64,000 nucleotides of DNA from a virus. The notes under the pieces are model-generated. The model did not search any database and was not told where the DNA came from. It saw nothing but the letters and a program-made list of their open reading frames with translations. Positions 4,655-51,185 of the stretch are shown here, piece after piece. The stretch is taken from IMG/VR virus record IMGVR_UViG_3300030419_003589, positions 1 to 64,000 of that record. One strand, written 5' to 3'. The position numbers and the translations under genes were made by a program. Numbering within the stretch: the stretch's first letter is position 1; every line of letters begins with the position of its first letter.

Positions 4655-4969
4655 ATGGCTAGTGAAATTCATAAGGACGACGTTGGCACAAGATTCTTGA
4701 TAACCGTCAAGGACGATGGTAGTCTCGTTAACATATCTGGGGTCTCAGGAGCATCTGTACACCAGATAAGTTTTAGAAAGCCAAGCGACACTGTTATAGA
4801 GAGAAATGCTACACTTCAAGACTACGGTATTTCAGGTGTTATGTATTACGATACAGTGGATGGAGATTTAGATGAAGCCGGGGTATACAAACTTCAAGCT
4901 AAGGTTGTTGTCCCGAGTGGTACATACTATACAGATATTTACACTTTTAAGGTTAATAGCAATATATAG
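4655..4969 (+). CDS. BppU N-terminal-like (Ig-like baseplate upper) domain protein
   Basis: HKDDVGTRFLITVKDDG...ISFRKPSDTVIERNATL...YYDTVDGDLDEAGVYKLQAKV resembles BppU_N-type domains. Confidence 0.55.
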   Translation: MASEIHKDDVGTRFLITVKDDGSLVNISGVSGASVHQISFRKPSDTVIERNATLQDYGISGVMYYDTVDGDLDEAGVYKLQAKVVVPSGTYYTDIYTFKVNSNI

Positions 4970-4976
4970 GTGATTT

Positions 4977-5495
4977 ATGTCTTGGCAAGGTACAATGTCT
5001 ACAGTCGTACGCCACTTGGTGAACGACGTTGATGCAACGGCTTATACTTTTACGCCGTCTAGAATAGAAACAACTATTTTGGTCGCAGCCCAGTTGTTGG
5101 TTATGAATGTCGATTTTAACAACGACTATACCATAAACGTGGAAGCGATCACCTTATCTCCAGATCCAACAGATACATCAACAAAAGATGACGCTTTTAT
5201 AACTTTGGCTTGCTTGCGAGCTGCGTGTATAATATTGGGTAGTGAGATAAGAAAAGAGTCTGGAAATGCTATATCAATTAAGGATGGCCCATCTGCGATT
5301 GATCTTAGAGGTGTTACTCAGACCTTAACTGTCTTATACAAAGATTTATGTGAAAAATATGAGAAATCATTATTAGAATATAGAGCTGGCAATGGTGTTG
5401 TCGGACAGTCAATACTTGGTCCTTACAGTCCCGGTTCACATGGAATAGCTAGGAACTACGCGGATCACAGATCAGGTGGATATTTTGACCATTAA
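4977..5495 (+). CDS. Putative head-tail connector/adaptor protein
   Basis: 172 aa, predicted helical, with SIKDGPSAIDL and a C-terminal helix LYKDLCEKY. Position in the morphogenesis operon. Confidence 0.4.
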   Translation: MSWQGTMSTVVRHLVNDVDATAYTFTPSRIETTILVAAQLLVMNVDFNNDYTINVEAITLSPDPTDTSTKDDAFITLACLRAACIILGSEIRKESGNAISIKDGPSAIDLRGVTQTLTVLYKDLCEKYEKSLLEYRAGNGVVGQSILGPYSPGSHGIARNYADHRSGGYFDH

Positions 5496-5508
5496 AGGAG
5501 ATTTTTAA

Positions 5509-6510
5509 ATGGCTACGATGAAAAGCTCTGGCGACCTAATAGCCAGCATCAATTTAGATATGGCAGATAACAATGCTGGATTAATTTCAGCAGAAGATGT
5601 TCGTCACAACATGGCGGACACGGCTTTTTCTATAAACAGAATAGTCGCCAGTGGCGACACAGAGGTAGAGTTTCCGTTCTTTCATAATGTCAAGATTGCC
5701 GCGACCGGCAGGACGACAAACGACATTGATGGTAAGCTAATTATAGAGTCTGGAATTAGATTTCCAAATGCTCCAAACGGCGATACGACAATGTTACAAC
5801 TCGTACCATATCCCGGACCTTGGGCTATCGACCATAATCAGTTAGACAATCTTCCCAATGGACACCCCCACACTCAATACTATCATATAAATGGTGTGGA
5901 TCAGGCCAATAATGTACTCAATGGGCATGTTCCCGTTGGTCACGCTAACTGGATAAATGCCTCTGGCTATGCTTCTATTGGATTTAGGTTTGTCCCAGTA
6001 ATGGGTCACGAACAAGAAATCTATACATCTGGAACTCTAAGGTTTGGAGACGGCTCTAGTATACCAAACGGCAAGGTTGGAGCAAAAGCTTGGTGTAATT
6101 TCAACGCCAGCGGTAATCTAGACGGTAACCTTAATTTGCCATACATAAGGTCTTGGCACAATATTAGCGGTATAGAAAGGCTCGCTCCCGGAAAGCTAAA
6201 GATTACTTTCCCCTCGGGTCTTTTCTCTGATAATGACTATGTTGCGATTGGTCATGCAAATGGAACAGTAGCCTCTGGTAGCAAAGAAGATATGGCGGTT
6301 AACACTGTCGGCACAGTTCTTAGAGAAGGAAATGATGGAGCTGACGATGTAGACAACCCAAGAACCTGTACTTATGTCATTAGGAACATGGCTGGACAAT
6401 ATGTAGATGCTGAAATATGCGACCTTGTAGTCTATGGATATGAACCCGGAGAAGTTTCCGGCGTTGTCCCCACAATGACAGTATCCGCTTCTTATAGTGA
6501 AAACGAATAA
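5509..6510 (+). CDS. Tail fibre-like virion protein
   Basis: DHNQLDNLPNGHPHTQY fibre motif and a KAWCNFNASG...IRSWHNISGIERLAPGKLKITF C-terminal domain typical of phage fibres. Confidence 0.6.
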   Translation: MATMKSSGDLIASINLDMADNNAGLISAEDVRHNMADTAFSINRIVASGDTEVEFPFFHNVKIAATGRTTNDIDGKLIIESGIRFPNAPNGDTTMLQLVPYPGPWAIDHNQLDNLPNGHPHTQYYHINGVDQANNVLNGHVPVGHANWINASGYASIGFRFVPVMGHEQEIYTSGTLRFGDGSSIPNGKVGAKAWCNFNASGNLDGNLNLPYIRSWHNISGIERLAPGKLKITFPSGLFSDNDYVAIGHANGTVASGSKEDMAVNTVGTVLREGNDGADDVDNPRTCTYVIRNMAGQYVDAEICDLVVYGYEPGEVSGVVPTMTVSASYSENE

Positions 6511-6531: not shown

Positions 6532-9500
6532 ATGCACTCCGATATAGTCATACTATCAGACAGAATTAAAGAACTTTCTCACACTGCGGGACAGGGAGCT
6601 TTGACCCTCGATGGTGAGTTGGCTGGCTTTAGCCCTTTTAGCGACTTTTATGAGTATGGGGATGTCGTATATTATGCGGCAACTGATGGTACTAGATACG
6701 AGGTAGGCTCTGGGGAATACAGACAAAACGGCTCCAATAACGAGCTAACAAGATTTCCCTTAAGAAGTTCCAATCTAAATTCTGGCCCTTACTACCTGAA
6801 CGGCAAGAGCGCTGATGGAGCAACTCGTGGACAAGAGGGTTATTTTTATCCCCTATTTCTCACTAAATCATCAGCTTTAGCAGTTGCTGGTGCTACCAGT
6901 GCTCACACCCATGCCTTTTCTGGGTATCCCGGTGTTACTTTTTATATGCCCAACAATCACGCTGCCCACGCACAAGGGTCGGCAGCAAGTGCAACTGGTG
7001 TTGATTATGCCGCCTCCGGACTCCCTGTTAACTTCCCAGATGCTGGCATAAAAGAAGTATATGTAACTTATCCCGGCAAGTATTCTGTATTTACTGGCTA
7101 TGGCATAAGTGGATATAGAGAACCAAAGATGAGCGGTGTTGCCTTCTGGGGTAGCGAACAACTCTTAAACTACGATAGCGACATGTTATGGTCTGATGCA
7201 CGAGCTAACCTTGGTATATCTCAGACAAATCCACAGTTTGCTATTGACATTGGGGGCGATAGAGCTTATTCTCAGATTAGAGCTTCTGGCTTCTTTGGTG
7301 GAGGTTCTGGTATTTATTTCTCTGGAGGTCAAGCTTTACCTCAAGATGCCACCAAAACAGCTTCAGGCGGAAGGCAGCTAGAGCCGTTCTTTAGAAATAA
7401 GCTAGACGGAACAACTGGCACAGACGCCGTATTCTACCTGAGTGGCATTGTAAATGAAAGCATATGTTTCCTTCCACAAGAGAAGGGTACTATTTTCTCT
7501 GGCCCTGCAAGCGGATGTGAAACAGCAGGCTGTAGCCCAGCTACTCCAACATTTAGATTCTTGACACTAGAAGATATCCCCGACCTCTCTTCGCTGTATG
7601 TCGTCCAATCTAAAACTATGGACGAAAATCCAAATACCCTAACTCAAAATGGAGCTATTGCCCTATACCAAGAGAGCGGCATTATCACTTACGATGATGG
7701 GTTTGTATTCTTAAAGTCTGCCAACAGGCTAGGCATCGGAACCAACGCTCCAAATTACGCTTTAGATGTAATGGGCGGTAACCTCGGCGTTAGCGGTGAC
7801 ATTATTACGTCTGGCGACATCTATACTACGTGGAATGGAAGCGTACGCTCCAGTGGAGACCTCGCTGTAAGAAATAATGCTTATGTTGGAGGCTCTGTTA
7901 CTGTTAGCGGCGACCTGTTTGTCAAAGGCACCACTACATATATTGACAGTACAAATGTAACAATACACGATAAACAGTTGGAGTTAGCCTCTTTAAGTGG
8001 TAATGCAATCCATGACGACATGGATTCTCTCATTGACGATGGTGGTATTCTAGTAAGATCTTCTGGTAACGGATCGGCAGACACTGGCGATAAGAAATGG
8101 ACTTGGAAAAATGCCTCCAACACATGGGCTGCCACAACGTCTAACGGTGAAAATTTAGGCATCACAAGTAGTGGTATCATCTTTAACGGCGGCATGGGTA
8201 CTGTTAGCGGAGCTTATCTAGCAGGTAGCGGTCTTACACTGCTTAATAACAAATTGACTTTTGCTATTGGAAACATGTTTAAGGTCGGGGCTGTTGCTTC
8301 AGGCCATGACGGTAATGATGGTAATTACATAACTAATCAGATTCATCAGGCTGATGAGATTGGTTTTAGCGGAATACATGGCGTTGCAGTAAACGTAAGC
8401 GGTGAACCCTCCAATCTAGCAGCGGGAGGCTTTGTTAGTGGTATAACATTAACAGTCGATCCAAGCGGTCTTTCTGGCCTACTTTACAATGAGATTACCC
8501 ACAGTGGGGCTGCGGTCTCTGGTCTTGCGAACACAGCGATTACAGCGGTTTCTGGAACTTTAAAGTATACGATTGACAACGGAGCTGGTTATGCTGGTTG
8601 GAAGGTCAAACAAGAAGACACGGAAACTCTTGACACTATCGCCACCACTGAGGCTGTATTATTTTCTGGTGTAAGTGGTGTTAATGTAGATTACGTACCC
8701 GGAACAAACACTTTGCTCTTCGACGCTGTTGCTCTTTCTGGCAACCTACAGTATAATATCGACGCCTCGGGAGCTGCGGTTTCTGGTTTTGCCAAGAACC
8801 AAATTAATTCTTCAGGTAACTTCCTAAGAGATTCTCTCAATGCTTCGGGAATGAACATCTCCGGAATGTTTAACCACACTGTAAATAACCTTACCTTATC
8901 CAACATCACCGCTGCCACTGTAATTACTTCCGCAGAGGGTGTTGGTAGCAATGATAACGAAACTACTTTCCCAACGACTGCTGCCGTAAAAGCCTATGCC
9001 GATAGCGTGGCAGGTAGCTCACCTAGTTATGCTGGCTGGAGAATACATGAAGCAGACACAACGGCAACTTACGACACTATTGGTTCTAATGAGGTCGTAT
9101 TATTCTCTGGTGTAAGCGGTGTCCATGTAGACTACATAGCTTCAGCAAACACCGTACTGTTTGACGCAGTGGGAATCTCGGGTAACCTACAGTATAATAT
9201 TGATGCTTCTGGAGCTGCGGTTTCTGGCTTCGCCCTGAACTATACTGACGCTTCTGGCAACTATCTAAGAGATCAGATCCAACTTTCCGGAGTTGCGGTC
9301 TCTGGCTTCGCACTGAACTATACTGACGCTTCGGGTAACTTCCTGCTAAACAGTATTAACGCTTCGGGAGCTGCGGTCTCTGGCCTTGCAAACACGGCGA
9401 TTACAGCGGTTTCTGGAACCTTAAAGTATAGTATGGACCAAATAACGCCATCCACAGCTGGTTCTGGCCTTATAAAGGTCGCACTTACTGACGGCTCAGA

Positions 9501-11700
9501 AGTGATAAATATGAATGTAGACGGCAGTGGTCAAATTAGCCATCTACTATTCAAAGATGATAAAATTAGAATTGGTCAAAATGCCGCAGCTGGAACATTC
9601 AATTATAGCCTAGGTAGTGGAGCTATAGCAATTGGAGATAGAGCTGGACTCAACTCTAGACTTTCTCACCACACAGTGTTCCTAGGTAGTGGTGCTGGTG
9701 TAAACTCTTCTGGTAATAATTACAACATACTTATAGGTAATTCAGCCGGAGCTTCTTCTTCAGGTAATCATTTTGTTACTGCTATTGGTCATCGGGCTGC
9801 TAGATACACAAATCTCGTTACTCAGAGTACTAACTTTATTGGTAGAGAAGCTGGTGGCTGGGCGAGCGGATGCGACAACTCTAACATAATAGGTATGTTC
9901 GCAGGCTATAAAATTCAGAATGTTGACAACGCAAATCTCATTGGTAATAGAGCTGGCTACGAGGCAGCCAGCATGTCTGGCTTTAATTGCATAGGCCTCC
10001 TAGCTGGAGCTGATGCTATAGGGGGAACAGATAGCAACCTTATTGGTACTAATGCTGGTTCTGGAACCTACGCTAGTGGGAACCTTGACGGATTCTATTC
10101 CTCCAACATGATAGGCAACGATGCCGGAAAAGGAGCCGTGTGCCAACCCGGATCTGGTTATGTTAACTTCATAGGCCACAAGGCTGGTGCGCATTCGTGG
10201 AGGTCAGATTTCTGTGACTTTATTGGATACGAAGCAGGTTACGCCGCCTCATCAGGCCAAGACGCGCTAGACGCCAGTACGTGGTCAGCAGGGGCAACTG
10301 AAGTAATTGCTATAGGTAAAAAGGCCTTCCGAGAATCCGCAAGAATAACACAACTTATTGCTATAGGAACTAGTGCTGGTAGACAAATCCCATCTGGATC
10401 AAATGGAAATATATTGATCGGAAAAGGTGCTGGCGCGTATGTATCAGGCTACTTGCATGAACACAACGTTTATGTAGGTACAAATGCAGCCTCTGGCATT
10501 ACGTGGGGTGAGTACAATGTTGGCCTAGGCTATAAGGCTATGGAGAACTCCATCCAAAAAACGAACGGCGTGAGTAGCCTCGGTCAAAATGTCGCCATTG
10601 GATATGAGCCGATGGTTGACTCTAGCGGGGTAGGGATATCAGTTGCTATGGGCTATAAGGCTATGCATGGCGCTAGTGGATACCTAAACTTGGGTAATTA
10701 CACCACCAAAAACATTGCGATTGGATATCACGCGGCAAAAGACGCAGGACTGGGGACCGATAACGTATTTGCTGGTAGCCACGCGGGGCAGGGTTCTGTG
10801 AAATCATCCTACGAAGTATCCATTGGCCGATTCGCGGGGTATGAAACAGATCATGAGTATGGAACTGAGCGTTCATACAATGTCAACATTGGAGACCACG
10901 CGGGATACCATAGCAAAACCCTCAAACAAAACGTCAATTTAGGTCACTGGGCTGGAGCCGATTCGTCCGGAACGCTCTCGTACAATAATGTTGCGATAGG
11001 CCCATATGCGATGTATGGTTCGAGTGGCGACCTCAACGCTTTAGCTATTGGCTACTATGCAGGTAGGCAACACAACGGTGCTCAAGGTAATGATGGATAT
11101 GGTAATATTCAGATTGGCTACAAGGCGGGGTATGAAGGTAGAGGTGGACACAACATCCTTCTCGGAAGCGATGCCGGTAAAGATCAATACCTATCCAACG
11201 CCATTGTTATCAAGCACAACAGTAACAGTTCCAACAGTGATTGGATTAATGCTACCTCCCCAGAAGATTCAACCCTATCACTGGGTACTTCAATATTCTC
11301 GGCTTACGAAAATGCTAATACACAAATAGGTAAAGAGCCATCATCAGTAAGTGACTTTAGTTCATATATTTTAAGAGTGGCTACCCATAGCGATAGCAAA
11401 GTTGTTCTCAAGACGACCAGAAATGGAGGTAGTCATACCACCGGTGACCAAATTCAATCCTCGTTGGACTCCAGCGATAAAGCAAATACGATTGTAAATG
11501 CTTATGGATTTTTGCAGATTCCTATAGCCACTTCTTCCACCGGTAGTGGAGCAACTAGACGATTATTCCTCGCAGACGGAACTGCAATTGAAGAGGTAGA
11601 AGGTACGGTTGTTGTTTGGAAGGGTGGAACTGAGTACAGACTTGCAATTTACGTAGGAAGTTCGTGGCGTAAACTCGCCAATAACCTTAGCGCATGGTAA
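6532..11700 (+). CDS. Long tail fibre / adhesin (1722 aa)
   Basis: N-terminal DRIKELSHTAGQGALTLDG...YEVGSGEY...VNFPDAGIKEVYVTYP fibre anchor; RLGIGTNAPNYALDV; central S/G/A repeats; C-terminal half of N-x-x-IG-x-x-AG beta-roll repeats. Confidence 0.8.
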   Translation: MHSDIVILSDRIKELSHTAGQGALTLDGELAGFSPFSDFYEYGDVVYYAATDGTRYEVGSGEYRQNGSNNELTRFPLRSSNLNSGPYYLNGKSADGATRGQEGYFYPLFLTKSSALAVAGATSAHTHAFSGYPGVTFYMPNNHAAHAQGSAASATGVDYAASGLPVNFPDAGIKEVYVTYPGKYSVFTGYGISGYREPKMSGVAFWGSEQLLNYDSDMLWSDARANLGISQTNPQFAIDIGGDRAYSQIRASGFFGGGSGIYFSGGQALPQDATKTASGGRQLEPFFRNKLDGTTGTDAVFYLSGIVNESICFLPQEKGTIFSGPASGCETAGCSPATPTFRFLTLEDIPDLSSLYVVQSKTMDENPNTLTQNGAIALYQESGIITYDDGFVFLKSANRLGIGTNAPNYALDVMGGNLGVSGDIITSGDIYTTWNGSVRSSGDLAVRNNAYVGGSVTVSGDLFVKGTTTYIDSTNVTIHDKQLELASLSGNAIHDDMDSLIDDGGILVRSSGNGSADTGDKKWTWKNASNTWAATTSNGENLGITSSGIIFNGGMGTVSGAYLAGSGLTLLNNKLTFAIGNMFKVGAVASGHDGNDGNYITNQIHQADEIGFSGIHGVAVNVSGEPSNLAAGGFVSGITLTVDPSGLSGLLYNEITHSGAAVSGLANTAITAVSGTLKYTIDNGAGYAGWKVKQEDTETLDTIATTEAVLFSGVSGVNVDYVPGTNTLLFDAVALSGNLQYNIDASGAAVSGFAKNQINSSGNFLRDSLNASGMNISGMFNHTVNNLTLSNITAATVITSAEGVGSNDNETTFPTTAAVKAYADSVAGSSPSYAGWRIHEADTTATYDTIGSNEVVLFSGVSGVHVDYIASANTVLFDAVGISGNLQYNIDASGAAVSGFALNYTDASGNYLRDQIQLSGVAVSGFALNYTDASGNFLLNSINASGAAVSGLANTAITAVSGTLKYSMDQITPSTAGSGLIKVALTDGSEVINMNVDGSGQISHLLFKDDKIRIGQNAAAGTFNYSLGSGAIAIGDRAGLNSRLSHHTVFLGSGAGVNSSGNNYNILIGNSAGASSSGNHFVTAIGHRAARYTNLVTQSTNFIGREAGGWASGCDNSNIIGMFAGYKIQNVDNANLIGNRAGYEAASMSGFNCIGLLAGADAIGGTDSNLIGTNAGSGTYASGNLDGFYSSNMIGNDAGKGAVCQPGSGYVNFIGHKAGAHSWRSDFCDFIGYEAGYAASSGQDALDASTWSAGATEVIAIGKKAFRESARITQLIAIGTSAGRQIPSGSNGNILIGKGAGAYVSGYLHEHNVYVGTNAASGITWGEYNVGLGYKAMENSIQKTNGVSSLGQNVAIGYEPMVDSSGVGISVAMGYKAMHGASGYLNLGNYTTKNIAIGYHAAKDAGLGTDNVFAGSHAGQGSVKSSYEVSIGRFAGYETDHEYGTERSYNVNIGDHAGYHSKTLKQNVNLGHWAGADSSGTLSYNNVAIGPYAMYGSSGDLNALAIGYYAGRQHNGAQGNDGYGNIQIGYKAGYEGRGGHNILLGSDAGKDQYLSNAIVIKHNSNSSNSDWINATSPEDSTLSLGTSIFSAYENANTQIGKEPSSVSDFSSYILRVATHSDSKVVLKTTRNGGSHTTGDQIQSSLDSSDKANTIVNAYGFLQIPIATSSTGSGATRRLFLADGTAIEEVEGTVVVWKGGTEYRLAIYVGSSWRKLANNLSAW
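8504..9430 (+). repeat. Internal nucleotide-level duplications in the fibre stalk
   Basis: About 8511-8578 matches about 9369-9430 (GCTGCGGTCTCTGG..TTAAAGTATA). About 8590-8830 matches about 9030-9270. A tandem AVSGFALNYTDASGN unit occurs twice (about 9215-9340). Confidence 0.85.
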
Positions 11701-13110: not shown

Positions 13111-14097
13111 ATGGCATTTACTTATTCACCACTAAAAGGTTTTACCACTGTACATCAGTCTACGACAAACAATGACATACAGGATAACCTTGTTGAGTAC
13201 TTTGATTGGGGCTTATTAGAAAAGAACAACTATTTCAATAGCGCTCTGGGAGAACTTTCTCCAGAGTCTATGGACTATAGCAGGTTAAGGGTATCGAAAA
13301 GCGATAACTTTACCTCCGGACAGGCTTGGGAAGGATTTAGAAAAAATTGGGTTTGGCAGAGTGGTATTTCAGGAGTAGATGGACATCATAACCCCCTAGT
13401 TGGGGATAATAACACAAAACCCGGATTATCCGGAGTTTGGGTAGATGACACCTTTTACCCCTCTAATACGACAGGAGATTATGCCCATCATATTGACTAC
13501 TTTAATGGAAGGGTTGTGTTTGACAGTGCGATTCCTACGGGATCAAAGGTTCAGGCGGAGCATAGCTACAAGTATATAAACGTTATTTACGCAAACAATT
13601 TACCTTGGATACAGGAGTTGCAGGCTAAAAGCCTAGCGATGGCCGCAAATTTCCTGACCAACGACAAGGGCGACGTAAACGTACCACAGGAAGCCAAGAT
13701 GCAATTACCGCTAATAGCGGTGGAAGTTGTCCCCACTAGAACATTTCAGGGGTACCAACTTGGCGGCGGACAGTGGATACGTCAAGATGTCGTTTTTCAC
13801 TGCATTGCTGAGGACGAAGTAACTAGAAATAAGCTTATAGATATAGTTTCATTACAAAATGATAAAACAATATGCCTATTTGACAGTAATAGAATCAATT
13901 CAGACAGCAAATTTCCTATAGATTATAGGGGAACTCCAGTTTCAGGCGCTTTAAGGTATCCAGACCTAGTAGAGGCCTATTATGGGGGTAAATTAAGGAT
14001 AACAAAATCAACTGTGCAGCAAATGCAGATGATAGATTCCAATATATTTGGAGGGGTGGTCAGGATGACCGCAGACTTAATAAAATCAAATATTTAA
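13111..14097 (+). CDS. Putative tail terminator protein with an inserted domain
   Basis: C-terminal LPLIAVEVVP...QLGGGQWIRQDVVFHCIAEDEVTRNKLIDIV pattern; IDYFNGRVVFDSA insert; directly before the major tail gene. Confidence 0.5.
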   Translation: MAFTYSPLKGFTTVHQSTTNNDIQDNLVEYFDWGLLEKNNYFNSALGELSPESMDYSRLRVSKSDNFTSGQAWEGFRKNWVWQSGISGVDGHHNPLVGDNNTKPGLSGVWVDDTFYPSNTTGDYAHHIDYFNGRVVFDSAIPTGSKVQAEHSYKYINVIYANNLPWIQELQAKSLAMAANFLTNDKGDVNVPQEAKMQLPLIAVEVVPTRTFQGYQLGGGQWIRQDVVFHCIAEDEVTRNKLIDIVSLQNDKTICLFDSNRINSDSKFPIDYRGTPVSGALRYPDLVEAYYGGKLRITKSTVQQMQMIDSNIFGGVVRMTADLIKSNI

Positions 14098-43600: not shown

Positions 43601-45719
43601 GTTGAAGTGCAATTACAATCCCTTCACTGAGGCATGGGAATATAATTATAAGCCAGAGCCTCAAGGGGGCTTTGTTGACTTCTCTCTGATTGGCATGAAA
43701 ACGGTTGGCATGGGTATTGGCTTTGAAGCTAGGCATAAGAGGGCGTTTCCTAAGTTTGTTACAAACGCGCTAGCTCCCCTAGACACCAAAAACTTAATGA
43801 TGTCAAGCAATAGAATGTCTTGCTATGTTAGGTTTGATAACAGTCACCTCTATGATTTTTCAAATTTATCTTCCGAGTCTTTCTCTCAGCAGAGTATAAA
43901 TGAATTTGGATTGATTATCCCCGACGCACTAGAGGAACTAGATAATGTTGATCCCGACAAGAGCATGACTATGGCGGAGGTTCAAGCTAGACAAGATGAA
44001 GATAAACTCTTGGATCGACAGCCCCCATCTGTTGCGTTTGTTAAGTGTGATGTAGACGAAGAATTCTATATGGCTCCAAGGGTCATGAATATTCCAACAC
44101 AAGTTTTTGCTAGAAGCTTCAAGGTTGTTGTTCCAACACCAAGAATGGAAATTATAAAAGTTGCCCCAGAGGACAATCCCGACACAGACGATGTCGATGA
44201 ATCGAAATGCTTAGTTCCAAGTGGTGTAACAAGAAAAGTAATTCCTGTCTTCAGTCCATCGGAACCAAAACGTAGTTCACAGAAAAAAACCGTTATGACT
44301 ACAGATTTTCTTAAGGTCAAATCGACGGATGGAGTACCCATTTATAATGATCGGTCGGATTGGGACCCGGACAGTCCGTTTGGTGGAGACATAATAAGCA
44401 TAGACAAAGAAACAATACATTTAGTTGATGGAAGAAGGGTTGCCCAAGATCCAGATAGCGTATACGCATTAATTACACTACCGGGAATGGTTACCCCCAC
44501 TTTAGATTTGCGGTACTGTGATGGCCCACAGTCTTGCTACCAGACAGCTAAAATGTATAATCTTCAAACTAGGGACGTGGTTAAAGGAGTACTTGGCTTT
44601 GAAGAGCCAGCAGAATTTACCAATGGCGTCCTAAAAGCAACCTGCGAGACGCTACAGGACTTTGAACTTGGGGAAATAAACGATGCTAGAGCAGCCCAGA
44701 AGCAAGCCCTGAAAAATGCTCATGTCGCATCTATGGACAGTTCGTTAGCATACAATGCTCCCTCTCCGGTTTATCCCGACATGGTGGCAATACCTTTAAT
44801 GTCAATGGAAAGATGCTATGGCCCTTGGTTATCTAATGCATCGCTTGACCCCGCAACACTAGCACCCGGAGTAACAAATATTGGTGGGAAAATCGAGTTT
44901 GTTAAAGACGAGAACTTGGCCCCTTGGAATTATGGGGGTTACCAATTGATGAATGAGGCGGGCTTTTTACAGGCACAGTTTTCAAATAGTCTTTTACTAT
45001 TTACGGAGCGGGGAGGGTTTGTTATACCTCAAGCTCCTACAGGAGTAGCAATAGCCAGAGCCTTAAAAACTGGTGGCCCTTTAGTAACCTCGATAAGCGT
45101 AGATATATCACAAAGTAAAATAAGCACAACCGTTAAAATGGATTTGTATACTTCAAGCTTTGGAAAACTACAAAAACAGAAAGAGGGAAATATAGCTCAA
45201 ATTGGTAGAGAAAGACAGAAGCTGGTTGATCAGAGGAATAACGCAATAAGAAGAGGTATGGGAAAAACACTCTCTAACAAAAACTTTTATGAGGCCGTAC
45301 TCAAAGGTGGTGGAGCAGACCTCCTTAAAGCGGCAAGTGCTTCAACTCAGCACTTCTCTGATTTTGAGAAGGGACAAGTTGAAGAAAATAATATATTCTT
45401 AGCTGCCAAAACATCATGGAATAATGGTGAGCCGGTAAATTTCAACGGCACGGTGGCCGGGGCAGCAGGAAACATGTTAAAACAAGGTAATAGCTACATT
45501 CAGACTAATCTTAATAACGTCGGTGAAATGATGGGGTTATCTCAGGATACGGTTGGAGCCTTAAAAACAGCGGGATTGACGAACATGGGATTCATTGGAG
45601 ACTTTATTAATTTGGTGGACATGACTACCCATAATGAAAACGAACCTAGGGTAGCACGCCCTCCGCAAAAAAGCGTTGACCAAAGACGTGGACCAGCCCC
45701 TCCCGATGTAGAGAATTAA
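40653..45719 (+). CDS. Large tail-tip / baseplate-hub-like protein (1688 aa)
   Basis: FLGASIRNFNINAGFGDSTSTLSVDLVND N-terminal hub-like strands, a central coiled-coil, and GGPLVTSISVDISQSKISTTVKMDLYT near the C-terminus. Confidence 0.55.
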   Translation: MSENLLGIVAPSGEYAEGWPSQFVLPQGINGDMSDAGWKEGAEGFPQQTFLGASIRNFNINAGFGDSTSTLSVDLVNDEFNLSDETLMGSGDDPYHNGDSDQFRPPVVGTPVFFKFGGNPASVEQAWRKTFDDLYGIDTIDEPVDFPTITTAGEIKRIPAPHHYLRKIENKGTPNQVNTWVNKSALYDPETQWRGKDHLVFGGILQSYTQNRGPGGNPLYSAQITDPREILSNAVVLLSNYAGTTFNNKNLLNVFGFLEHDPSEPTKKAIEGLALSKNVVTKVINPLTGNFIYTGDDNYHFEKPAFKGTFFTGTGHVHFPDTIGETFPITGQGFARRSERGMPWYRIRDGLNALMGVNGFLPTEYVEAGYGGAIDFRGYKYIVDFSGIPSELIPDSFFFDFDQTDLLSLSQEICDIISHELFVTLLPVIDHPSCKVIHDFNTNIIRFFPQFRSQMIAGIIRVDAIDKRKPPTYGAIKSYLDFLLARGVEVENQDVGYELSNVTTDKFVVGGQETNMYYFSAAKDRNDMEVRKHKDGQTNKLALLEREKWSLDTMLKQQVLPFYGFLGPEKAVTIPKGFGSYQQILLDATNLNAFGVGNYYVATEIELRAALVSYQQWKNFLLQYDEQWMRKLEGPIKHFDQHVPADVAAEIADAGMSDDVTEMFKACFDGKYGVSVPRCVWRSDKNYLGKDGYPASPCAPPFGYPLYYKRAEKIGVAEGGIVSVLNAQTTLMSNLNQLKDKLDTNEPYFNTIKEDALEEVKKIEKSINAKWLQFKRAFSNDLAAQAAFSTINVKLYTALAEAKAYVKQIEKDLKQADADDKLVIAHINDTISNNKKLLKNASRIAKKGEKNAQKVYNFVRKVAEENLGKKFLVKIPKKANMNFDPEVKYWQKGIVEDNSGDEEEGEVEQQENMAVSNVKKGPFGFRPLPVTAGAAYHISGEAWETIIKNIGKRVKNSDAFEHYLDPDHKTGNASFPNGYTNGALKCNYNPFTEAWEYNYKPEPQGGFVDFSLIGMKTVGMGIGFEARHKRAFPKFVTNALAPLDTKNLMMSSNRMSCYVRFDNSHLYDFSNLSSESFSQQSINEFGLIIPDALEELDNVDPDKSMTMAEVQARQDEDKLLDRQPPSVAFVKCDVDEEFYMAPRVMNIPTQVFARSFKVVVPTPRMEIIKVAPEDNPDTDDVDESKCLVPSGVTRKVIPVFSPSEPKRSSQKKTVMTTDFLKVKSTDGVPIYNDRSDWDPDSPFGGDIISIDKETIHLVDGRRVAQDPDSVYALITLPGMVTPTLDLRYCDGPQSCYQTAKMYNLQTRDVVKGVLGFEEPAEFTNGVLKATCETLQDFELGEINDARAAQKQALKNAHVASMDSSLAYNAPSPVYPDMVAIPLMSMERCYGPWLSNASLDPATLAPGVTNIGGKIEFVKDENLAPWNYGGYQLMNEAGFLQAQFSNSLLLFTERGGFVIPQAPTGVAIARALKTGGPLVTSISVDISQSKISTTVKMDLYTSSFGKLQKQKEGNIAQIGRERQKLVDQRNNAIRRGMGKTLSNKNFYEAVLKGGGADLLKAASASTQHFSDFEKGQVEENNIFLAAKTSWNNGEPVNFNGTVAGAAGNMLKQGNSYIQTNLNNVGEMMGLSQDTVGALKTAGLTNMGFIGDFINLVDMTTHNENEPRVARPPQKSVDQRRGPAPPDVEN

Positions 45720-45739
45720 AGGACTAGGAGAACAAAAAT

Positions 45740-48700
45740 ATGGATAATCTAGATAGATACAAAGCAGACTATCACGAGTTTACAAATAACAGTGAGTGGT
45801 TAAAGAAGTTTAACCTTTCTACGTACACCACTGGGGTTCTTTATCGCTGGTGGAATTCGTGCTGGATGGATCAGGGCGATCCGAACGCGAACGACGTTGC
45901 TTCAAGGGGCCACATTGGTCAGAGCGTGAGCGTTAGAGATCTTTATGCGTACGAGCTTGGCGTGGACGACTTCGCTAGTACGAACCAGCGGGATGCCATC
46001 GGCTCTGTGATGGCGCCCACCAACGACCCAAGCATGGCTGTATTTATGAATGGCAATAGGGCACGGCGCGGCCTGTTGCAAAGTGGTATACAGTTTGAGG
46101 CGTGGAGATTTGAAGATAATAACAAGGGTAGATTTGAATTAATAGAGAAGCTAGTAGACTGGACGTGGCAAGACCCCAGAGAAGAGGTTCTTTGGGGGCC
46201 ATTTGATTGGGACGACCTTCAGATAGATGAGTTCACTCAGAAAATAGTCGTCTCTCCGACAAAAGATGGAGAAGAGCCTACACTTGTAGATGCAGAGTAT
46301 GAGGGTTGTGACTACAACGCTGGTATACTTGGTTCTCCCTATCAAAGCCTTTCTGAAATAATAACGATGAACAATTGGGTCAGGCTCAAGGAAATCTCTA
46401 TGCCAAAGGTAGAGGATTGGCCCGAGAAGGATAAAGCCAGAAGAGAATTTATAGATGATATTAAGACCTCCAGAAGCGGCTGTCTTTCCATTATGTGCTC
46501 GATTGCTGTAGATGTAACTCCGGACAGACTTGAACTTTGCCCAATTACCGAGTACTTTACAACAAACCTATATTTGAGAGATACGATCAAACCTGAGAAC
46601 AAAGCTTTCTTTGCTCTTCCTGAACTCAAAAAGGTAGGTATCCCTAAAGATTCTACAGGTAGACCGTATGGCTCCAAAAAAGACGGAGACCTTTCAGAGC
46701 CAGACGAAACCAAAGAAGGGGACAAAGTAGTTGCTGATATTGATATGCACTTTAATGAGTACACGGGGACTTATCAAAGCGGCAGTAAAACTATCTTAGC
46801 AAAAATAACCAAAACCGTTGGCCCAGCAGATGGCGCTGAGGATTTAGAATCTTTGAAGGGCAGTGATAACGAGGAAACACTGGACGGATTAAACGATAAC
46901 TATCTCCAAATGGGAACCGGGGAAGCCATGCCAATTACTATGCAGAATGGCAACCCATATCAATGGACTCCTAATTATGCACTACCCGCCGACTGTAGAG
47001 AGGGTAATACGGACAAAGCCACAGTTATTGTATACAATCCAGACCCAGAGAAAAGCTTTTCTGTTGGCAAGACCGTGCTGCTACATGAGGTAGACGGCGT
47101 TTGGATGCCTGTTGAATTTGGCTCCGGTGAAGACACGACATTTACCCCACAGCCCATATTTAAAGGTAGATGGGAAATACAACAGTTCGCAACATGTATG
47201 GGCAATTTTTTCACAACGGCGCGGGCGCCGGAGCATCCGTGGAACAGTAATTGCAATACGGTAGATTATCCGTTTGGTAGACGCTCGCAACTTACACCCA
47301 TTCAGGCGGAGCAAAAGTTTCATAGAAAATATTATTACTCCAACGACTTGAATAATGGCGGGCCTGATGACCCCACTAAATATGCCGGAAAGTTCGGCGG
47401 CGCTGCCGACGATTGGGTATCTGAGGCGATCACCAATACAGCCGCGAGTTACTGTAGGCAGGTTACGGGGTTTGACTATTTAGAGCATACACTAGGAGGA
47501 ACTAGGTCGCCTACAAAACGGTCTATAGATAGAACCACGTTTGGTCGATTTGCCAACGGTGATATGCCTTCGGAGGCGGGCGGGTATAGCCCTGAGAATA
47601 CTGTTTATTTTGGGACGCTTTTCCCCGATGGATGGACCGCTACGGGTATGGACAACGAGGAAGAGAGTGGCCCTCAGACTCTTACGTATGAGGCGCGACC
47701 CTATCACATGAAAACTTGGGGCGTGGAGAATGAATTTTTCTACGACCAAGGAGACACTGACAATCCTGTTATTCCGGCAGCTAAGAACGTATTGCCTCAA
47801 ACTTTGCAGGCAGATTCTGATGCAACCGCCTACCAAGATGCTTGGAAGAAGATTATAGGCGAAGATGAACAGGGCAAGCTAAGGGACGATAAGAAAGTAG
47901 GCATGTTCTATAATTATGCAGATCATCAGTCTACGGTGTTGGAGCAAATGCCAGCAGATTATGCGTTACAATGCTCCCCAAGCGGAACGTATGGCAGACC
48001 CATTCTTAGTCTAAGAAAATTAATCGAACTCGACAACACCACTATACCCGCGAACCTGCAAGAGGCCGTGCAAAAGGGGTTTTACACTAAACTACTTGAT
48101 AAAACAGTTGCCGGTACGAGAACTTTAGATGATATAAAAAACCTACAAACTCTAGCTCGTAAAAATAGTTTTTATAGCTGGCTTTATCGAGAACCTCAAG
48201 ACGGTTTTCCTGAAGACGAGGCTGGAGAGACCACGGTTGAGTACCATAAAAGCGCAATGGACTGGAGGCCAGTCAGGGCGTCTAGAATACAGTTCAGACC
48301 ATTGATGTACGAACTATACGCTAATGATCATGGGAGGCAAATCCCGACAAGTTATTTTCCAACTCCATACTACAATAGAGATTATATATATAACTACTTG
48401 TCGTTTAAGATGGACGATGGACTTCCAGCTTGGAGTACGCAAAGTCGTTTACGCGAGGATAAATTGCGCGATGGTAAGCTGAATAGAATATACATGGAGA
48501 ATAATGACTCAATTGGTTCTCACCCAGTAGGTTTTGGCGGCTACGGCTTCAGTCCAAACGACGGCTGCGACACGGTCAGCAGACAATTTTACAGAGCTAA
48601 TGGGTTACCTTTCAATAATGATTTTCAACAGGCGGTACTCAACAAGTATCACCCTACCGAGAGGGTGCACTACGACCTGTACAGATGCAACTATGCGGGT

Positions 48701-50344
48701 GGAACTAGGGCAAGATGTAATCACCGTCGAATAAAAGATCAAGGAGGAGCCGGGGGCGTAGGTGTTATAGGGGCTGTCTGCACAGTTGGGGCGGTTCAAA
48801 GAGTATCTTTTACGACGATGAACAAACTTGGAATGCAGTCGTACTTTTTGAATAAACATTGGTATCCTTCTTGGGGGGGTAATAACTTTGACAGATTCGA
48901 TAAGTTTGGAACTACGGATCTATCCGTTCGTGTATATCAGGCACACGAGCGAGAGAACTTAATATATGACTCAAGGTTCTTTGCTGTTTACCATTTCAAC
49001 GACGGAACATCTCTTCCGAATGATTTCCTGAACCGGAAAGCGAATATAACACTCGTTTATAAAGACATTTACGAGGGTGGCATTGACACCATCGAGGCTG
49101 ACACTGATAATGACGCTCAAGCAGACTGCTTAGTAGGCGTGAAGAGAAGCAAGGTAGACACTCAGTTAGCATCATACGTGGAGTATGAGGACGATTGCAA
49201 GATTAAAGAAGAGTGGGTCATAGCTAAAGCTAAAGACCCTCCAGAACTTTATCATCCGACCAGATATCCATATCCGGCAGAGGCGACCACGCTCCCAGTT
49301 GGAGAGGGGGATCAGGTGTATAAAAACCAAATTTACCGCAGGGGCGATGATAAGTGGGGCAGGTTAATTCCTAAAGAGCATTGGATAATTGATCCAAGAA
49401 GAAGAGGAAAATGTTTGCCCTATAACCATTATAGAGAAGTTTGCCAACTACCGCATTTCTTCTTTGGCCAAGTTATTCTAAAGGGTCCGTTTGTAAAAAT
49501 TGGAAAGGTTTGGGCTAGATCTACTGAGATGGATAATTATGCATCCCTTACAGGTCAATTTGCTTCCGTGCCCGCTCTAGAGACAAAAGATGCGAATGGA
49601 GATCTTGTGCGTAACGATCAAGATATTAGGGACGTTGACCTAGTTTTGACACAACTTGGGCAGGATTATAAGATAGGAGACAGGTTTAAGGTAGAAGGGT
49701 TTGATAACAGTGAGGTCACGGTGATGTCTACCGGCACTCAAGGATGTGTAAACGGCCTGTTTATCAAATTGAAAACAGTTAATGGTAAAATTCCACACAC
49801 GGAATATGTAAAATATGGAACGGATGTTGACCCCAGCGTTCTGATAGACGCAGACTTAGAGTTTAAAGATGTTGTAGATTGTAAGGATTTCAGCGTAGAA
49901 AAAGTGGGGAAAATCACTAGAATTACCAATGGCGCTGCCAAACTTAAGCCCTATAATAAATTCTCTGTTAGCGGAAAGGGTTTTAGTGCATTCGTAACTG
50001 GGGCAACGGTCAGAAATCTATTAATGACAGACCATAAGCCCAAAATAGCCTCAATTAACGATTATTCACAGCTTTCTTTACCGTCCAATAAGGACGACGG
50101 GGGAACAGCGGGGCAAGACTTCCTATTTGGATTTATTCAGTCATCGAATGATTTCATTGCGATGGATGGGGGTGAAAGGATAGTTGACGTTGATGTTGAG
50201 ACAAATCCGTCACCAAGCGGGCTATACGACTGTTTTTTCCATTTTCATAACGATATTTCTCATACTATCTTAAATAATGACACAATTGGTGCTCTTGGGA
50301 ACGTAGGAGACCAGTATGTACAGCTAGAAATCAATCCTGTTTAA
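45740..50344 (+). CDS. Large tail-associated / receptor-binding-like protein (1534 aa)
   Basis: Long intact ORF at the end of the tail block with an AGGAG RBS. No family recognised confidently. Confidence 0.5.
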   Translation: MDNLDRYKADYHEFTNNSEWLKKFNLSTYTTGVLYRWWNSCWMDQGDPNANDVASRGHIGQSVSVRDLYAYELGVDDFASTNQRDAIGSVMAPTNDPSMAVFMNGNRARRGLLQSGIQFEAWRFEDNNKGRFELIEKLVDWTWQDPREEVLWGPFDWDDLQIDEFTQKIVVSPTKDGEEPTLVDAEYEGCDYNAGILGSPYQSLSEIITMNNWVRLKEISMPKVEDWPEKDKARREFIDDIKTSRSGCLSIMCSIAVDVTPDRLELCPITEYFTTNLYLRDTIKPENKAFFALPELKKVGIPKDSTGRPYGSKKDGDLSEPDETKEGDKVVADIDMHFNEYTGTYQSGSKTILAKITKTVGPADGAEDLESLKGSDNEETLDGLNDNYLQMGTGEAMPITMQNGNPYQWTPNYALPADCREGNTDKATVIVYNPDPEKSFSVGKTVLLHEVDGVWMPVEFGSGEDTTFTPQPIFKGRWEIQQFATCMGNFFTTARAPEHPWNSNCNTVDYPFGRRSQLTPIQAEQKFHRKYYYSNDLNNGGPDDPTKYAGKFGGAADDWVSEAITNTAASYCRQVTGFDYLEHTLGGTRSPTKRSIDRTTFGRFANGDMPSEAGGYSPENTVYFGTLFPDGWTATGMDNEEESGPQTLTYEARPYHMKTWGVENEFFYDQGDTDNPVIPAAKNVLPQTLQADSDATAYQDAWKKIIGEDEQGKLRDDKKVGMFYNYADHQSTVLEQMPADYALQCSPSGTYGRPILSLRKLIELDNTTIPANLQEAVQKGFYTKLLDKTVAGTRTLDDIKNLQTLARKNSFYSWLYREPQDGFPEDEAGETTVEYHKSAMDWRPVRASRIQFRPLMYELYANDHGRQIPTSYFPTPYYNRDYIYNYLSFKMDDGLPAWSTQSRLREDKLRDGKLNRIYMENNDSIGSHPVGFGGYGFSPNDGCDTVSRQFYRANGLPFNNDFQQAVLNKYHPTERVHYDLYRCNYAGGTRARCNHRRIKDQGGAGGVGVIGAVCTVGAVQRVSFTTMNKLGMQSYFLNKHWYPSWGGNNFDRFDKFGTTDLSVRVYQAHERENLIYDSRFFAVYHFNDGTSLPNDFLNRKANITLVYKDIYEGGIDTIEADTDNDAQADCLVGVKRSKVDTQLASYVEYEDDCKIKEEWVIAKAKDPPELYHPTRYPYPAEATTLPVGEGDQVYKNQIYRRGDDKWGRLIPKEHWIIDPRRRGKCLPYNHYREVCQLPHFFFGQVILKGPFVKIGKVWARSTEMDNYASLTGQFASVPALETKDANGDLVRNDQDIRDVDLVLTQLGQDYKIGDRFKVEGFDNSEVTVMSTGTQGCVNGLFIKLKTVNGKIPHTEYVKYGTDVDPSVLIDADLEFKDVVDCKDFSVEKVGKITRITNGAAKLKPYNKFSVSGKGFSAFVTGATVRNLLMTDHKPKIASINDYSQLSLPSNKDDGGTAGQDFLFGFIQSSNDFIAMDGGERIVDVDVETNPSPSGLYDCFFHFHNDISHTILNNDTIGALGNVGDQYVQLEINPV

Positions 50345-50365
50345 TTTAACGAAAATCTATTTTAT

Positions 50366-50374
50366 GTGTATAAT
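50366..50374 (+). promoter_or_regulatory. Putative late-promoter motif GTGTATAAT
   Basis: Intergenic, upstream of the AAGGAG RBS of ORF 50400; identical to the motif at 4044. Confidence 0.55.
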
Positions 50375-50399
50375 ATAACAACTAGAAGGAGAACTTTTT

Positions 50400-51185
50400 A
50401 TGGCTACCATTACATTTCACGCGAATGGTCACAAGACGCAGTATTCCACTGCGTTTAATACAGACCCCTCGCTTATAGAACACACCAAAGGCTCTGGAAT
50501 TGGGTTCTACGGGGCAGGTTTTGGCCTGTCAGTCCCTGTAGGTCAGTACCAAGAATCCAGCTATGTCACCAATGGTGATGGCACAACTAGTGGTGTAAAG
50601 CTTAATAATACGCAATTTCAGTCTGCCAGCGGGATAAAAGCCAATGGCGTTGCTGTGACAGCAGAAACTTCAGGTATTCCAAACTGGTACGCACCTTTAA
50701 ACATTAGGTTTGTACACGACGAAGCTGTCGCCACCCAGAATTGTAAGCTCAGAATCTTCGATAGAGCCAGTATCGCTCAACACGCTAGTGGTGTAACCAC
50801 GAAGGTACTAGAAGTTAGGCATCCTCACCCGACAGAAGTTCATGCTATTGGCCCTGCTAATGCTGCCGGAAGCGGATCTTTGGCTCATAGAGGTATTGAT
50901 AACTTTAGCTGGTTTGAATTTGACCCCGGAGATGGCGGCACTCCTCCTGATATGACCTTCACAGCCTCGCCGGGAATGAGCGGTCTAAATACGGTTGATG
51001 GAGACCCTCTACCTTCAGCGAACTACACGGGTGGTGGAGCTGATGGGTATTTAAACTGGAAAACCAAAGAGGGTGCAGCCCATAGATCTACTAGACATGA
51101 TTGGTATTTGGCACTTAGTGCATCTCCTCAGTCTATTGGTAGCAAGACGGACTATGGCTTATATTTTACTCTAGAGTATCTATAG
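50400..51185 (+). CDS. Virion structural protein (261 aa), SG-rich
   Basis: Has its own putative promoter and is followed by a terminator. G/S/T-rich beta sequence with about 7 SG. Confidence 0.55.
   Translation: MATITFHANGHKTQYSTAFNTDPSLIEHTKGSGIGFYGAGFGLSVPVGQYQESSYVTNGDGTTSGVKLNNTQFQSASGIKANGVAVTAETSGIPNWYAPLNIRFVHDEAVATQNCKLRIFDRASIAQHASGVTTKVLEVRHPHPTEVHAIGPANAAGSGSLAHRGIDNFSWFEFDPGDGGTPPDMTFTASPGMSGLNTVDGDPLPSANYTGGGADGYLNWKTKEGAAHRSTRHDWYLALSASPQSIGSKTDYGLYFTLEYL

Follow-up and report, generated by a model that had tools for sequence, protein, structure and literature searches.

The outer tail and fiber proteins of an uncultured aquatic phage contain the dipeptide Ser-Gly (SG) two to three times as often as expected by chance, and this excess is real. 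It was analyzed in a window of 64,000 nt, positions 1 to 64,000 of IMG/VR record IMGVR_UViG_3300030419_003589, the whole of which spans 122 kb and is 73% complete. Expected numbers of SG and GS were derived from the composition of each protein and z scores from shuffling, and the family-wide survey of SG covered ~70 related loci, 120 fiber homologs, and 42 giant-protein homologs. The lineage consists of uncultured aquatic phages of the 170-kb class, for which no cultured relatives were found by DNA or protein search among 50,697 phage records.

Size, direction, and location of the Ser-Gly excess

Among all dipeptides, SG is the single outlier in two big proteins, a 1722-aa side fiber and a 4326-aa giant protein (z scores of 10 to 12), while GS stays at expectation in both and NG, TG, PG, and GG fall below it. 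The bias is therefore Ser-specific, with TG depleted, and directional, favoring SG and not GS. The hand counts of a preliminary description of this DNA turned out to be nearly exact (the computed numbers are 72 SG in the fiber, 98 in the giant protein, and 15 in the tape measure protein), and the comparison of observed with expected numbers that it had proposed as a check places SG above composition in both big proteins. SG pairs draw on every one of the six Ser and four Gly codons, indicating that the signal lies at the protein level; a DNA-level origin is ruled out by this codon usage and by the lack of a dominant hexamer.

The structural block (1 to 51.2 kb) contains 261 SG versus 119 expected, compared to 101 versus 97 in the remaining 71 kb of the record, and the ~100 non-virion proteins encoded in this genome are free of SG bias. 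The excess is found only in side fibers, the central fiber, and a few small tail proteins, and more weakly in the putative major tail protein. The tape measure, two tail proteins of 1500 to 1700 aa, the head/terminase block (observed/expected ratio [O/E] of 0.91 in the complete relative G017), and all non-virion genes lack it. The earlier claim that SG marks exposed virion proteins holds for the fibers, the central fiber, and the small tail proteins and fails for the head block and the two large tail proteins.

The side fiber and its neighbors

The window opens with the C-terminal end of an upstream fiber gene cut by the contig end (positions 1 to 933, plus strand; PHROG tail-fiber matches). 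This piece is not enriched (4 SG versus 3.1 expected) and aligns to the C-terminal third of a 1589-aa fiber of the relative G001, which has 48 SG versus 19 expected. An enzyme cassette lies within the fiber operon (1333 to 4020, plus strand) and is not SG-enriched. It encodes, all on the plus strand, a 353-aa protein with no family assigned, a methyltransferase (2367 to 2954; PF13578, E value of 2.5e-14), and two paralogous sulfotransferase-like proteins of 181 to 183 aa (2939 to 4020). The nearest named ESM-Atlas clusters of the two paralogs, listed previously as sulfotransferases, contain PF03567 (Sulfotransfer_2) in 68% and 44% of their members (score of 0.97); a Pfam search of both found no match. 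They are described here as sulfotransferase look-alikes, a call made by language-model search and motifs only.

Two smaller proteins encoded upstream of the side fiber are enriched. The 104-aa protein (4655 to 4969, plus strand) has 4 SG and 1 GS versus 0.9 expected (z of 3.6), with pooled O/E values of 2.06 for SG and 1.45 for GS over 30 homologs. The 333-aa fiber-associated protein (5509 to 6510, plus strand), with a PHROG tail-fiber C-terminal match, has 10 SG and 2 GS versus 2.4 expected (z of 5.4), and 8 of its 10 SG sites are retained in at least 60% of 26 homologs.

The 1722-aa side fiber (6532 to 11700, plus strand; PHROG virion-structural and tail-spike matches) contains 72 SG and 27 GS versus 26.2 expected (z of 10.1 and 0.1, respectively). 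Its SG O/E is 2.7 in aa 1 to 420, 3.2 in aa 421 to 620, 5.6 in aa 621 to 1000 (29 SG), and 1.7 in aa 1101 to 1560, the region of IGxxAG repeats, and the C-terminal 162 aa are SG-poor (0.46). An internal duplication of ~147 aa (SG positions 712 to 777 and 859 to 924) adds ~8 to 12 SG, and the excess persists without it. The string ASGAAVSG recurs in the fiber, and SG sites share the context (V/I)-x-(A/V)-S-G-(V/I/N/L)-(L/F/Y). Alignment of homologs revealed three invariant SG pairs in the N-terminal domain, S60-G61, S252-G253, and S259-G260. Foldseek with a model of this N-terminal region returned nothing significant, and a PDB sequence search with the fiber and the giant protein gave no match.

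The giant protein and the rest of the tail module

The 4326-aa protein (25225 to 38205, plus strand) is a central fiber or tail-tip protein. It has an FG-GAP Pfam match, and Foldseek matches of its AF2 model include ConA-like/laminin-G jelly rolls and the central fiber gp20 of mycobacteriophage Douge. It carries 98 SG and 33 GS versus 33.1 expected (z of 12.4), unevenly spread: the SG O/E is 2.8 to 4.2 in aa 190 to 2380 and 3.3 in aa 3701 to 4326, compared to 0 in aa 1 to 189 and 1.05 in aa 2381 to 3700. Internal repeats were rejected as the source of this count, as self-BLAST found nothing at 1e-3. An SG-x10-SG spacing recurs in 10 cases, whose flanks have no common pattern.

Upstream of it, the 328-aa tail protein (13111 to 14097, plus strand) has 5 SG and 1 GS versus 1.9 expected, with a family O/E of 2.26; the preliminary description had counted 6 SG. 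The 396-aa protein (14152 to 15342, plus strand) is a putative major tail (tube) protein by position only, and a PHROG search with it found no match. It has 9 SG and 2 GS versus 4.1 expected (z of 2.5; family O/E of 1.6 over 62 homologs), and its SG sites are distributed over aa 86 to 304, not C-terminal. The three proteins between it and the tape measure protein contain 1, 0, and 1 SG. The tape measure protein itself (17774 to 25204, plus strand; PHROG tape-measure matches), which serves as an internal control, shows no enrichment (15 SG and 14 GS versus 15.8 expected).

Downstream, the 617-aa protein (38205 to 40058, plus strand) has 9 SG and 10 GS versus 5.4 expected and shows no asymmetry. 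Two large tail-module proteins of 1688 and 1534 aa (40653 to 50344, plus strand), without a Pfam or PHROG family, have no SG excess (6 versus 7.9 and 8 versus 6.8 expected), and neither do their counterparts in G017. A weak Atlas lead connects these two proteins to baseplate-hub gpP/gp44-like proteins. The 261-aa protein (50400 to 51185, plus strand) has 7 SG and 4 GS versus 2.8 expected (z of 3.0).

Conservation and structural setting of SG sites

Among the 120 fiber homologs, the median O/E is 2.60 for SG and 0.92 for GS, and other residues before Gly are less frequent than expected (TG, 0.63; NG, 0.54; DG, 0.86). The 42 homologs of the giant protein with at least 2800 aa have a median SG O/E of 2.2. 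An alignment of 41 N-terminal regions from the giant-protein family has 12 columns conserved as SG, compared to 0 to 2 for each of 11 control dipeptides. With the conserved columns masked, 528 SG remain versus 318 expected (O/E of 1.66; controls, 0.7 to 0.95). Some SG sites are invariant across homologs, and half of the homologs' SGs occupy other columns, meaning that sites turn over while density is kept. Where SG is lost and the Gly retained, the Ser column holds Gly, Asp, Asn, or Thr instead. The SG excess, confined to outer tail proteins, is kept throughout the lineage with site turnover.

In the AF2 models, 18 of the 20 confidently modeled SG glycines of the giant protein and 6 of 7 in the fiber lie outside strands. 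About 90% of confidently modeled sites are therefore predicted to be in loops. A placement of SG just before strands was considered and dropped, since 30% of SG glycines and 32% of other glycines are so placed. About half of the SG sites have a hydrophobic residue directly after Gly. At up to 6 aa from SG, Asp plus Glu have a frequency of 0.072 versus a background of 0.082 in the fiber and 0.111 versus 0.133 in the 4326-aa protein, and SGxG is uncommon (3 of 72 and 7 of 98 sites, respectively).

Comparison outside the lineage

The pooled fibers and baseplate of T4 have an SG O/E of 1.01, which rules out the excess as a general trait of tail fibers. A general trait of beta-helix adhesins is ruled out by the passenger of Escherichia coli Ag43, with an O/E of 1.36 for SG and the same value for GS. 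The heptapeptide SGAAVSG is also present in the Ag43 beta-helix. An O/E of 1.1 to 1.3 was obtained for fibers with the IGxxAG module from phages of Pelagibacter, Roseobacter, and Synechococcus, so that these four cultured marine phages rule out a trait of the shared module. A proteome bias of the host phylum was likewise ruled out with a 400-kb sample of a Planctomycete genome (SG, 1.2; GS, 0.96), a genome of 63% GC and so not the host itself. The SG excess is lineage-specific. A literature search on Ser-Gly in phage fibers found nothing specific.

Sugar-synthesis genes

An island of sugar-nucleotide and glycosyltransferase genes occupies 53590 to 63797 on the minus strand and continues to ~71 kb outside the window. 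Its Pfam matches within the window are Epimerase/GDP_Man_Dehyd (twice), a DegT aminotransferase, GT2 (59802 to 60683), a GT-D-like protein (58963 to 59805), and methyltransferases, FkbM among them. Four GT1-family genes lie outside the window, three at 66.6 to 71.2 kb and one at 104.8 to 105.8 kb. The family matches show that glycosyltransferases and sugar-nucleotide enzymes are present, bearing out the earlier statement that this genome encodes glycan enzymes, and the island is a candidate source of any glycan. Related records encode GT2 in 23 of 25 cases and an epimerase in 24 of 25, and all five near-complete relatives have 3 to 4 GT1 genes. Because sugar genes are present in all relatives, there is no contrast between relatives, and the co-occurrence of SG and sugar genes within this single lineage equals one evolutionary event.

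The glycosyltransferases in the record are generic (GT2, GT4-type, and GT-D-like). A search of the 73%-complete record, which included GT9-like heptosyltransferases (PF01075), detected none of the Ser-glycosylating families GT9/BAHT, GT41, and Maf-type, and the GT14 xylosyltransferase family (PF02485, Branch) had no match at an E value of ≤0.01 in its 122 kb. The relative G001 has a GT2 gene immediately upstream of its SG-rich fiber; it is unlikely to be a dedicated enzyme, with no homolog in the complete and SG-rich G017. Phage glycosyltransferases also act on DNA or host surface glycans (PMC12619734). As for DNA hypermodification as the role of the island, a thymidylate-synthase-like hydroxymethylase was not found in the incomplete record.

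Possible explanations of the bias

We tentatively favor the reading that SG in the outer tail proteins is a serine acceptor motif for a phage-encoded modification, most plausibly O-glycosylation. SG in surface loops of side fibers, the central fiber, and small fiber-associated proteins, and more weakly of the tube, would be under selection across the lineage, the reason being that a trans-acting phage-encoded activity recognizes it. This activity would most plausibly be cytoplasmic O-glycosylation of the serine by soluble glycosyltransferases of the phage, with sugars from its 17-kb island, and would yield fibers bearing glycans rather than a particle coated all over in proteoglycan fashion. 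The serine modification, the responsible enzyme, and the identity of the glycan are all inferred. The bias extends across unrelated folds (the fiber, the small proteins, and, in the giant protein, the FG-GAP region and ConA-like jelly rolls) and is absent from the tape measure, the head/terminase block, and the non-virion proteins, so a shared trans-acting reader is simpler than many separate structural needs. Its restriction to this lineage, the density kept while sites move, the preference for Ser over Thr, Asn, and Asp before Gly, the predicted loop location, and the conserved sugar genes point the same way, as does the GT2 gene upstream of the G001 fiber. The methyltransferase and the two sulfotransferase-like genes within the fiber operon also speak for an acceptor. 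Against it, many SGs are invariant even in the virion-proximal aa 1 to 420 of the fiber, which looks structural; the flanks are hydrophobic, Ser is replaced by classic turn formers, the fiber C terminus is SG-poor, no known Ser-glycosylating family was found in the record, and G017 is SG-rich without the G001-type GT2.

The acceptor reading has partial precedents. In the TibA beta-helix, TibC adds heptose to serine but not to threonine, Ser-313 in N-S-G-G included, and the peptide around this site also contains A-A-V-S-G (PMC4358343). In such BAHT systems (TibC and Aah acting on TibA and AIDA-I), a soluble cytoplasmic enzyme modifies many Ser, not Thr, in the loops of an extracellular adhesin rich in beta structure; the sequence bias of the phage is Ser-specific, its modeled SGs are in loops, and the fiber repeat ASGAAVSG recalls the TibA peptide. 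Unlike these systems, the phage record has no GT9-type enzyme, and the candidate acceptors are tail proteins of several folds. Ag43, which belongs to the self-associating autotransporters together with AIDA-I and TibA (PMC3835316), lacks the SG excess of the phage fibers. Mycobacteriophage glycosyltransferases put O-linked glycans on virion proteins (Freeman et al. 2023, Cell Host Microbe, as cited in PMC12619734), and these reside on C-terminal extensions of capsid and tail tube subunits (PMC12619734). This phage similarly encodes glycosyltransferases and sugar-nucleotide enzymes, conserved in relatives, but its signal is a dispersed dipeptide that marks the side and central fibers, marks the tube weakly, and does not mark the head block.

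Nearly as likely is a structural motif with nothing attached. SG would then be how this lineage prefers to build loops and turns in its extracellular, beta-rich tail proteins, with the small, polar Ser hydrogen-bonding from its side chain to the backbone and the next residue being a left-handed glycine; conserved domains would inherit the pair, and new ones would reinvent it. The predicted loop location, the sequence context, the invariant pairs of the fiber N-terminal domain, the retained sites of the 333-aa protein, the replacement of lost Ser by Gly, Asp, Asn, or Thr, the heptapeptide shared with Ag43, and the lack of a protein-specific glycosyltransferase family in the record are all consistent with it, and glycine-ending tight turns (Asx/ST-turn plus Gly) show the same location and the same alternation of Ser with other residues. 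A fold-level need should be universal, however, whereas T4, Ag43, and out-group fibers have SG near GS, at ~1.0 to 1.4. General turn propensities favor NG and DG and do not single out Ser, yet both are below expectation in the 120 fibers; the bias also spans unrelated folds, persists at nonconserved columns, and shows no preference for positions before strands. Chemical stability is an improbable cause. NG and DG are labile, being hot spots of deamidation and isoaspartate formation, and long-lived extracellular tail proteins might avoid them and place SG in the same turns, as the low NG (0.54 in the fiber family; 0.81 in the structural block versus 1.09 in non-structural genes) and the exchange of Ser with Asn and Asp suggest. 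In the structural block, though, the NG and TG deficits add up to ~−38, much less than the SG surplus of +142; DG shows no depletion, no SG excess is seen in the head block of the complete relative, and other marine phage fibers lack the bias. Very improbable is the full model of the preliminary description, a proteoglycan-type sequon covering the whole virion with a sulfated, methylated, glycosaminoglycan-like shell. SG is the core motif of animal xylosyltransferase, and several methyltransferases and the two sulfotransferase-like genes would fit, even though the latter are look-alikes. The likeness to the animal sequon ends with the Ser-Gly core: acidic flanks, often with SGxG or repeated SG, and GT14 belong to the animal system, while the phage sites have hydrophobic flanks with acidic residues at or below background, SGxG is rare, and GT14 was not found in the record. 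The shell itself is contradicted by the unenriched head/terminase block, tape measure, and two large tail proteins.

Implications

In its widest form, which is possible but doubtful, the acceptor reading would describe ~170-kb aquatic siphophages, possibly infecting Planctomycetota, whose SG in surface loops forms a dispersed code by which their own cytoplasmic glycosyltransferases densely O-glycosylate the side fibers and the giant central fiber, with a glycan that may then be methylated or sulfated; the apparatus for host recognition would thereby carry a glycan decoration encoded by a sequon. If the serines are modified, SG would be a sequence-readable acceptor code for tail-fiber glycosylation, for which a literature search found no precedent. 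Glycosylated virion proteins would then be predictable from metagenomes, large phage sugar islands without export genes would have a purpose, and there would be a bearing on how phages tune adsorption, stability, or escape from recognition by hosts or grazers. Should the serines be unmodified, the phages would present a clean lineage-specific dipeptide preference, selected across unrelated folds and beyond current turn statistics. Either way, SG is a cheap marker of outer tail proteins in an otherwise unannotatable phage group.

Ser-Gly excess in the outer tail proteins

All ORFs of the window were translated, and SG and GS dipeptides in each protein were compared with the composition expectation and 300 shuffles. 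The hand counts of SG in the preliminary description were almost exact, and its claim that SG outnumbers GS is borne out in the 1722-aa side fiber (6532-11700), with 72 SG versus 27 GS (26.2 expected, z = 10.1), and in the 4326-aa central fiber/tail-tip protein (25225-38205; the giant protein), with 98 versus 33 (33.1 expected, z = 12.4). The 333-aa protein (5509-6510) has 10 SG and 2 GS (2.4 expected, z = 5.4), the 104-aa protein (4655-4969) 4 and 1 (0.9, z = 3.6), the 261-aa protein (50400-51185) 7 and 4 (2.8, z = 3.0), the 396-aa putative major tail (tube) protein, so named by position (14152-15342), 9 and 2 (4.1, z = 2.5), and the 328-aa protein (13111-14097) 5 and 1 (1.9, z = 2.4). The asymmetry is absent from the 617-aa protein (38205-40058; 9 SG, 10 GS, 5.4 expected, z = 1.6), and the tape measure (17774-25204) has 15 SG and 14 GS (15.8 expected, z ~0). 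Two proteins encoded downstream of the central fiber (40653-50344) show no SG excess, one of 1688 aa (6 SG, 2 GS, 7.9 expected, z < 0) and one of 1534 aa (8 SG, 7 GS, 6.8 expected, z ~0); neither has a Pfam or PHROG family, and for the former an Atlas search points weakly to baseplate-hub gpP/gp44-like proteins.

In the fiber and the giant protein, no other dipeptide with a usable expectation deviates nearly as strongly as SG; NG, TG, PG, and GG are depleted there. The pairs use all six Ser and all four Gly codons with no dominant hexamer, so the signal lies at the protein level. Across the whole record, an IMG/VR fragment of 122 kb that is 73% complete, the structural block has 261 SG versus 119 expected, and the ~100 remaining proteins have 101 versus 97.

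Distribution across the phage lineage

With the 396-aa protein as query, 69 related viral loci were retrieved (35 to 83% identity), and the large fiber upstream of its homologue is SG-rich in every such locus (observed/expected [O/E] 2 to 4, GS ~1), including fibers that match that of the window over the first 80 residues only. Median SG O/E is 2.60 (range, 1.79 to 3.91; GS, 0.92) for 120 fiber homologues from public metagenomes, many of them oceanic, and 2.2 (1.63 to 2.91; GS, 1.04) for 42 giant-protein homologues of at least 2800 aa; one relative (L038) has 87 SG in 1986 aa. The giant protein also has a collinear family of homologues 3,300 to 5,600 aa long. Pooled homologues of the 333-, 328-, and 396-aa proteins give 2.98, 2.26, and 1.6, and those of the three proteins preceding the tape measure give 0.6 to 1.1. 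In G017, a complete relative of 173 kb with terminal repeats, SG O/E is 1.91 in the tail/fiber block, 0.91 in the head/terminase block, and 1.15 in nonstructural genes. The SG excess is thus a trait of the lineage and not of this one genome. Ser-Gly had been proposed to mark exposed virion proteins; block by block, the homologues and G017 show that it marks outer tail proteins, not that whole class.

Nor is the excess a general trait of comparable proteins. SG O/E is 1.01 for pooled T4 gp7, 10, 12, and 34-37 and 1.36, the same as GS, for the Escherichia coli Ag43 passenger beta-helix, in which NG is enriched instead. The sole cultured phages matching the fiber, Pelagibacter phages HTVC111P and Kolga, Roseobacter phage CRP-1, and Synechococcus phage S-B05, have fibers with SG O/E of 1.1 to 1.3 and GS alike. 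They match at fiber aa 1101-1560 (9832-11211), a region of IGxxAG-type repeats with 24 to 30% identity to their tail fibers; one metagenomic homologue carries the YadA-head repeat family PF05658. In HTVC111P, a "putative glycosyl transferase" gene (L093:7344-8225) lies directly 3' of the tail fiber gene, whose product has no excess (1.23).

A 400-kb sample of a Planctomycete genome gives SG O/E of 1.2. Outside the window, a DUF1501 protein (79252-80535; L097:3253-4536, minus strand) shares 59 to 69% identity with Planctomycetota proteins (Pirellulaceae, Planctomycetaceae, Schlesneria, and Fuerstiella), which hints at this phylum as host; GC content is ~43% in the phage versus 63% in the one Planctomycete genome sampled.

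Site context, conservation, and predicted structure

The consensus around SG is (V/I)-x-(A/V)-S-G-(V/I/N/L)-(L/F/Y). SG O/E reaches 5.6 in fiber aa 621-1000, raised partly by an internal duplication, and falls to 0.46 in the C-terminal 162 aa; in the giant protein it is 2.8 to 4.2 in aa 190-2380 and 3701-4326, 0 in aa 1-189, and 1.05 in the Cys- and acid-rich aa 2381-3700. The duplication (~147 aa; aa 712-924, 8665-9306) repeats eight SG positions (712-777 and 859-924) and the heptapeptide SGAAVSG, which is also present in the Ag43 passenger; TibA contains AAVSG.

Conservation of SG sites is bimodal. Many pairs in the fiber N-terminal domain are invariant among 37 sequences. Over the first 1200 aligned residues of the giant protein, 11 of 34 window sites are shared by 60% or more of 40 homologues and the others by at most 42%, mostly <30%; 427 of the 859 SGs in giant-protein homologues sit at other columns than those of the window. 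The control analysis found 12 conserved SG columns and 0 to 2 for each of 11 control dipeptides, and masking conserved columns left a residual SG O/E of 1.66 versus 0.7 to 0.95 for controls; SG is thus conserved at some columns and keeps being regained at others. Where Gly is retained and Ser lost, the substitutes are Gly, Asp, Asn, and Thr.

In alignment-based AF2 models (mean pLDDT of 62 for fiber aa 1-620 and 65 for giant-protein aa 190-1389), SG glycines in confident regions are predicted outside strands in 18 of 20 cases (giant protein) and 6 of 7 (fiber), compared with ~60% of residues of all kinds. A preference for positions just before a strand was dropped, as SG glycines occur there no more often than other glycines. 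Foldseek neighbors of the giant protein are ConA-like/laminin-G jelly rolls and the mycobacteriophage Douge central fiber gp20, in agreement with its gene position after the tape measure.

Sugar and modification enzymes

Pfam matches in the window comprise two NAD-dependent epimerase/dehydratases, a DegT aminotransferase, a GT2, a GT-D-like protein, and an FkbM and further methyltransferases; four GT1-family genes lie outside it. Searches of the record for GT9/BAHT, GT41, Maf-type, and GT14 families found none. Since GT2, epimerase, and GT1 genes are present in virtually every related record, the contrast put forward in the preliminary description, relatives lacking transferases, does not occur in the reachable data. 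In relative G001, a 389-aa GT2-family gene (L201:5700-6869, minus strand) sits in the virion module and immediately precedes an SG-rich 1589-aa fiber whose C-terminal part is the counterpart of the first, truncated ORF of the window; the corresponding position falls just beyond the window's 5' end. This GT2 has homologues in some relatives (L033 and L037) and none in the complete, SG-rich G017.

The two "sulfotransferases" of the fiber operon, overlapping paralogous genes of 181 to 183 aa (2939-4020), have no Pfam match. An N-terminal HIPRTGG loop and an HRPxxDR..S segment are common to the pair. Both also contain loops that we take to resemble PAPS-binding motifs, and the nearest named ESM-Atlas clusters consist of small viral proteins, many with PF03567 (Sulfotransfer_2). 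A sulfotransferase identity is a lead, not an assignment.

Possible explanations of the Ser-Gly bias

Tentatively, we read Ser-Gly as an acceptor that a trans-acting activity would recognize in outer tail proteins. The bias crosses unrelated folds of one virion and spares internal, head, and nonvirion proteins; it is Ser-specific, is missing from comparable proteins elsewhere, and holds its density as sites shift, and a large sugar island (53590-63797, minus strand, on to ~71 kb) is present throughout the lineage. A purely structural motif is an almost equally probable alternative: many sites are invariant, virion-proximal ones included, flanks are hydrophobic, Ser substitutes follow a turn-former spectrum, the fiber C terminus is SG-poor, and protein-specific transferase families were not found in the record. 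Avoidance of NG and DG is an unlikely source of the bias. The sulfated, proteoglycan-like shell of the preliminary description is highly improbable, because the tests of sequon context (acidic residues near SG are at background or lower, and SGxG is rare), GT14 family, and head block all failed; the head/terminase value in G017 argues against a glycan coat over the whole virion.

Known systems work like the acceptor reading. Autotransporter heptosyltransferases modify serines and not threonines of TibA, one site lying in N-S-G-G (PMC4358343), and mycobacteriophages glycosylate their virions, according to PMC12619734, which cites Freeman et al. 2023. Literature searches turned up no account of a Ser-Gly bias in phage fibers. 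If the acceptor reading fails, the bias would be a compositional signature without explanation; if it holds, this lineage would provide a case of virion protein glycosylation, itself a known phenomenon.
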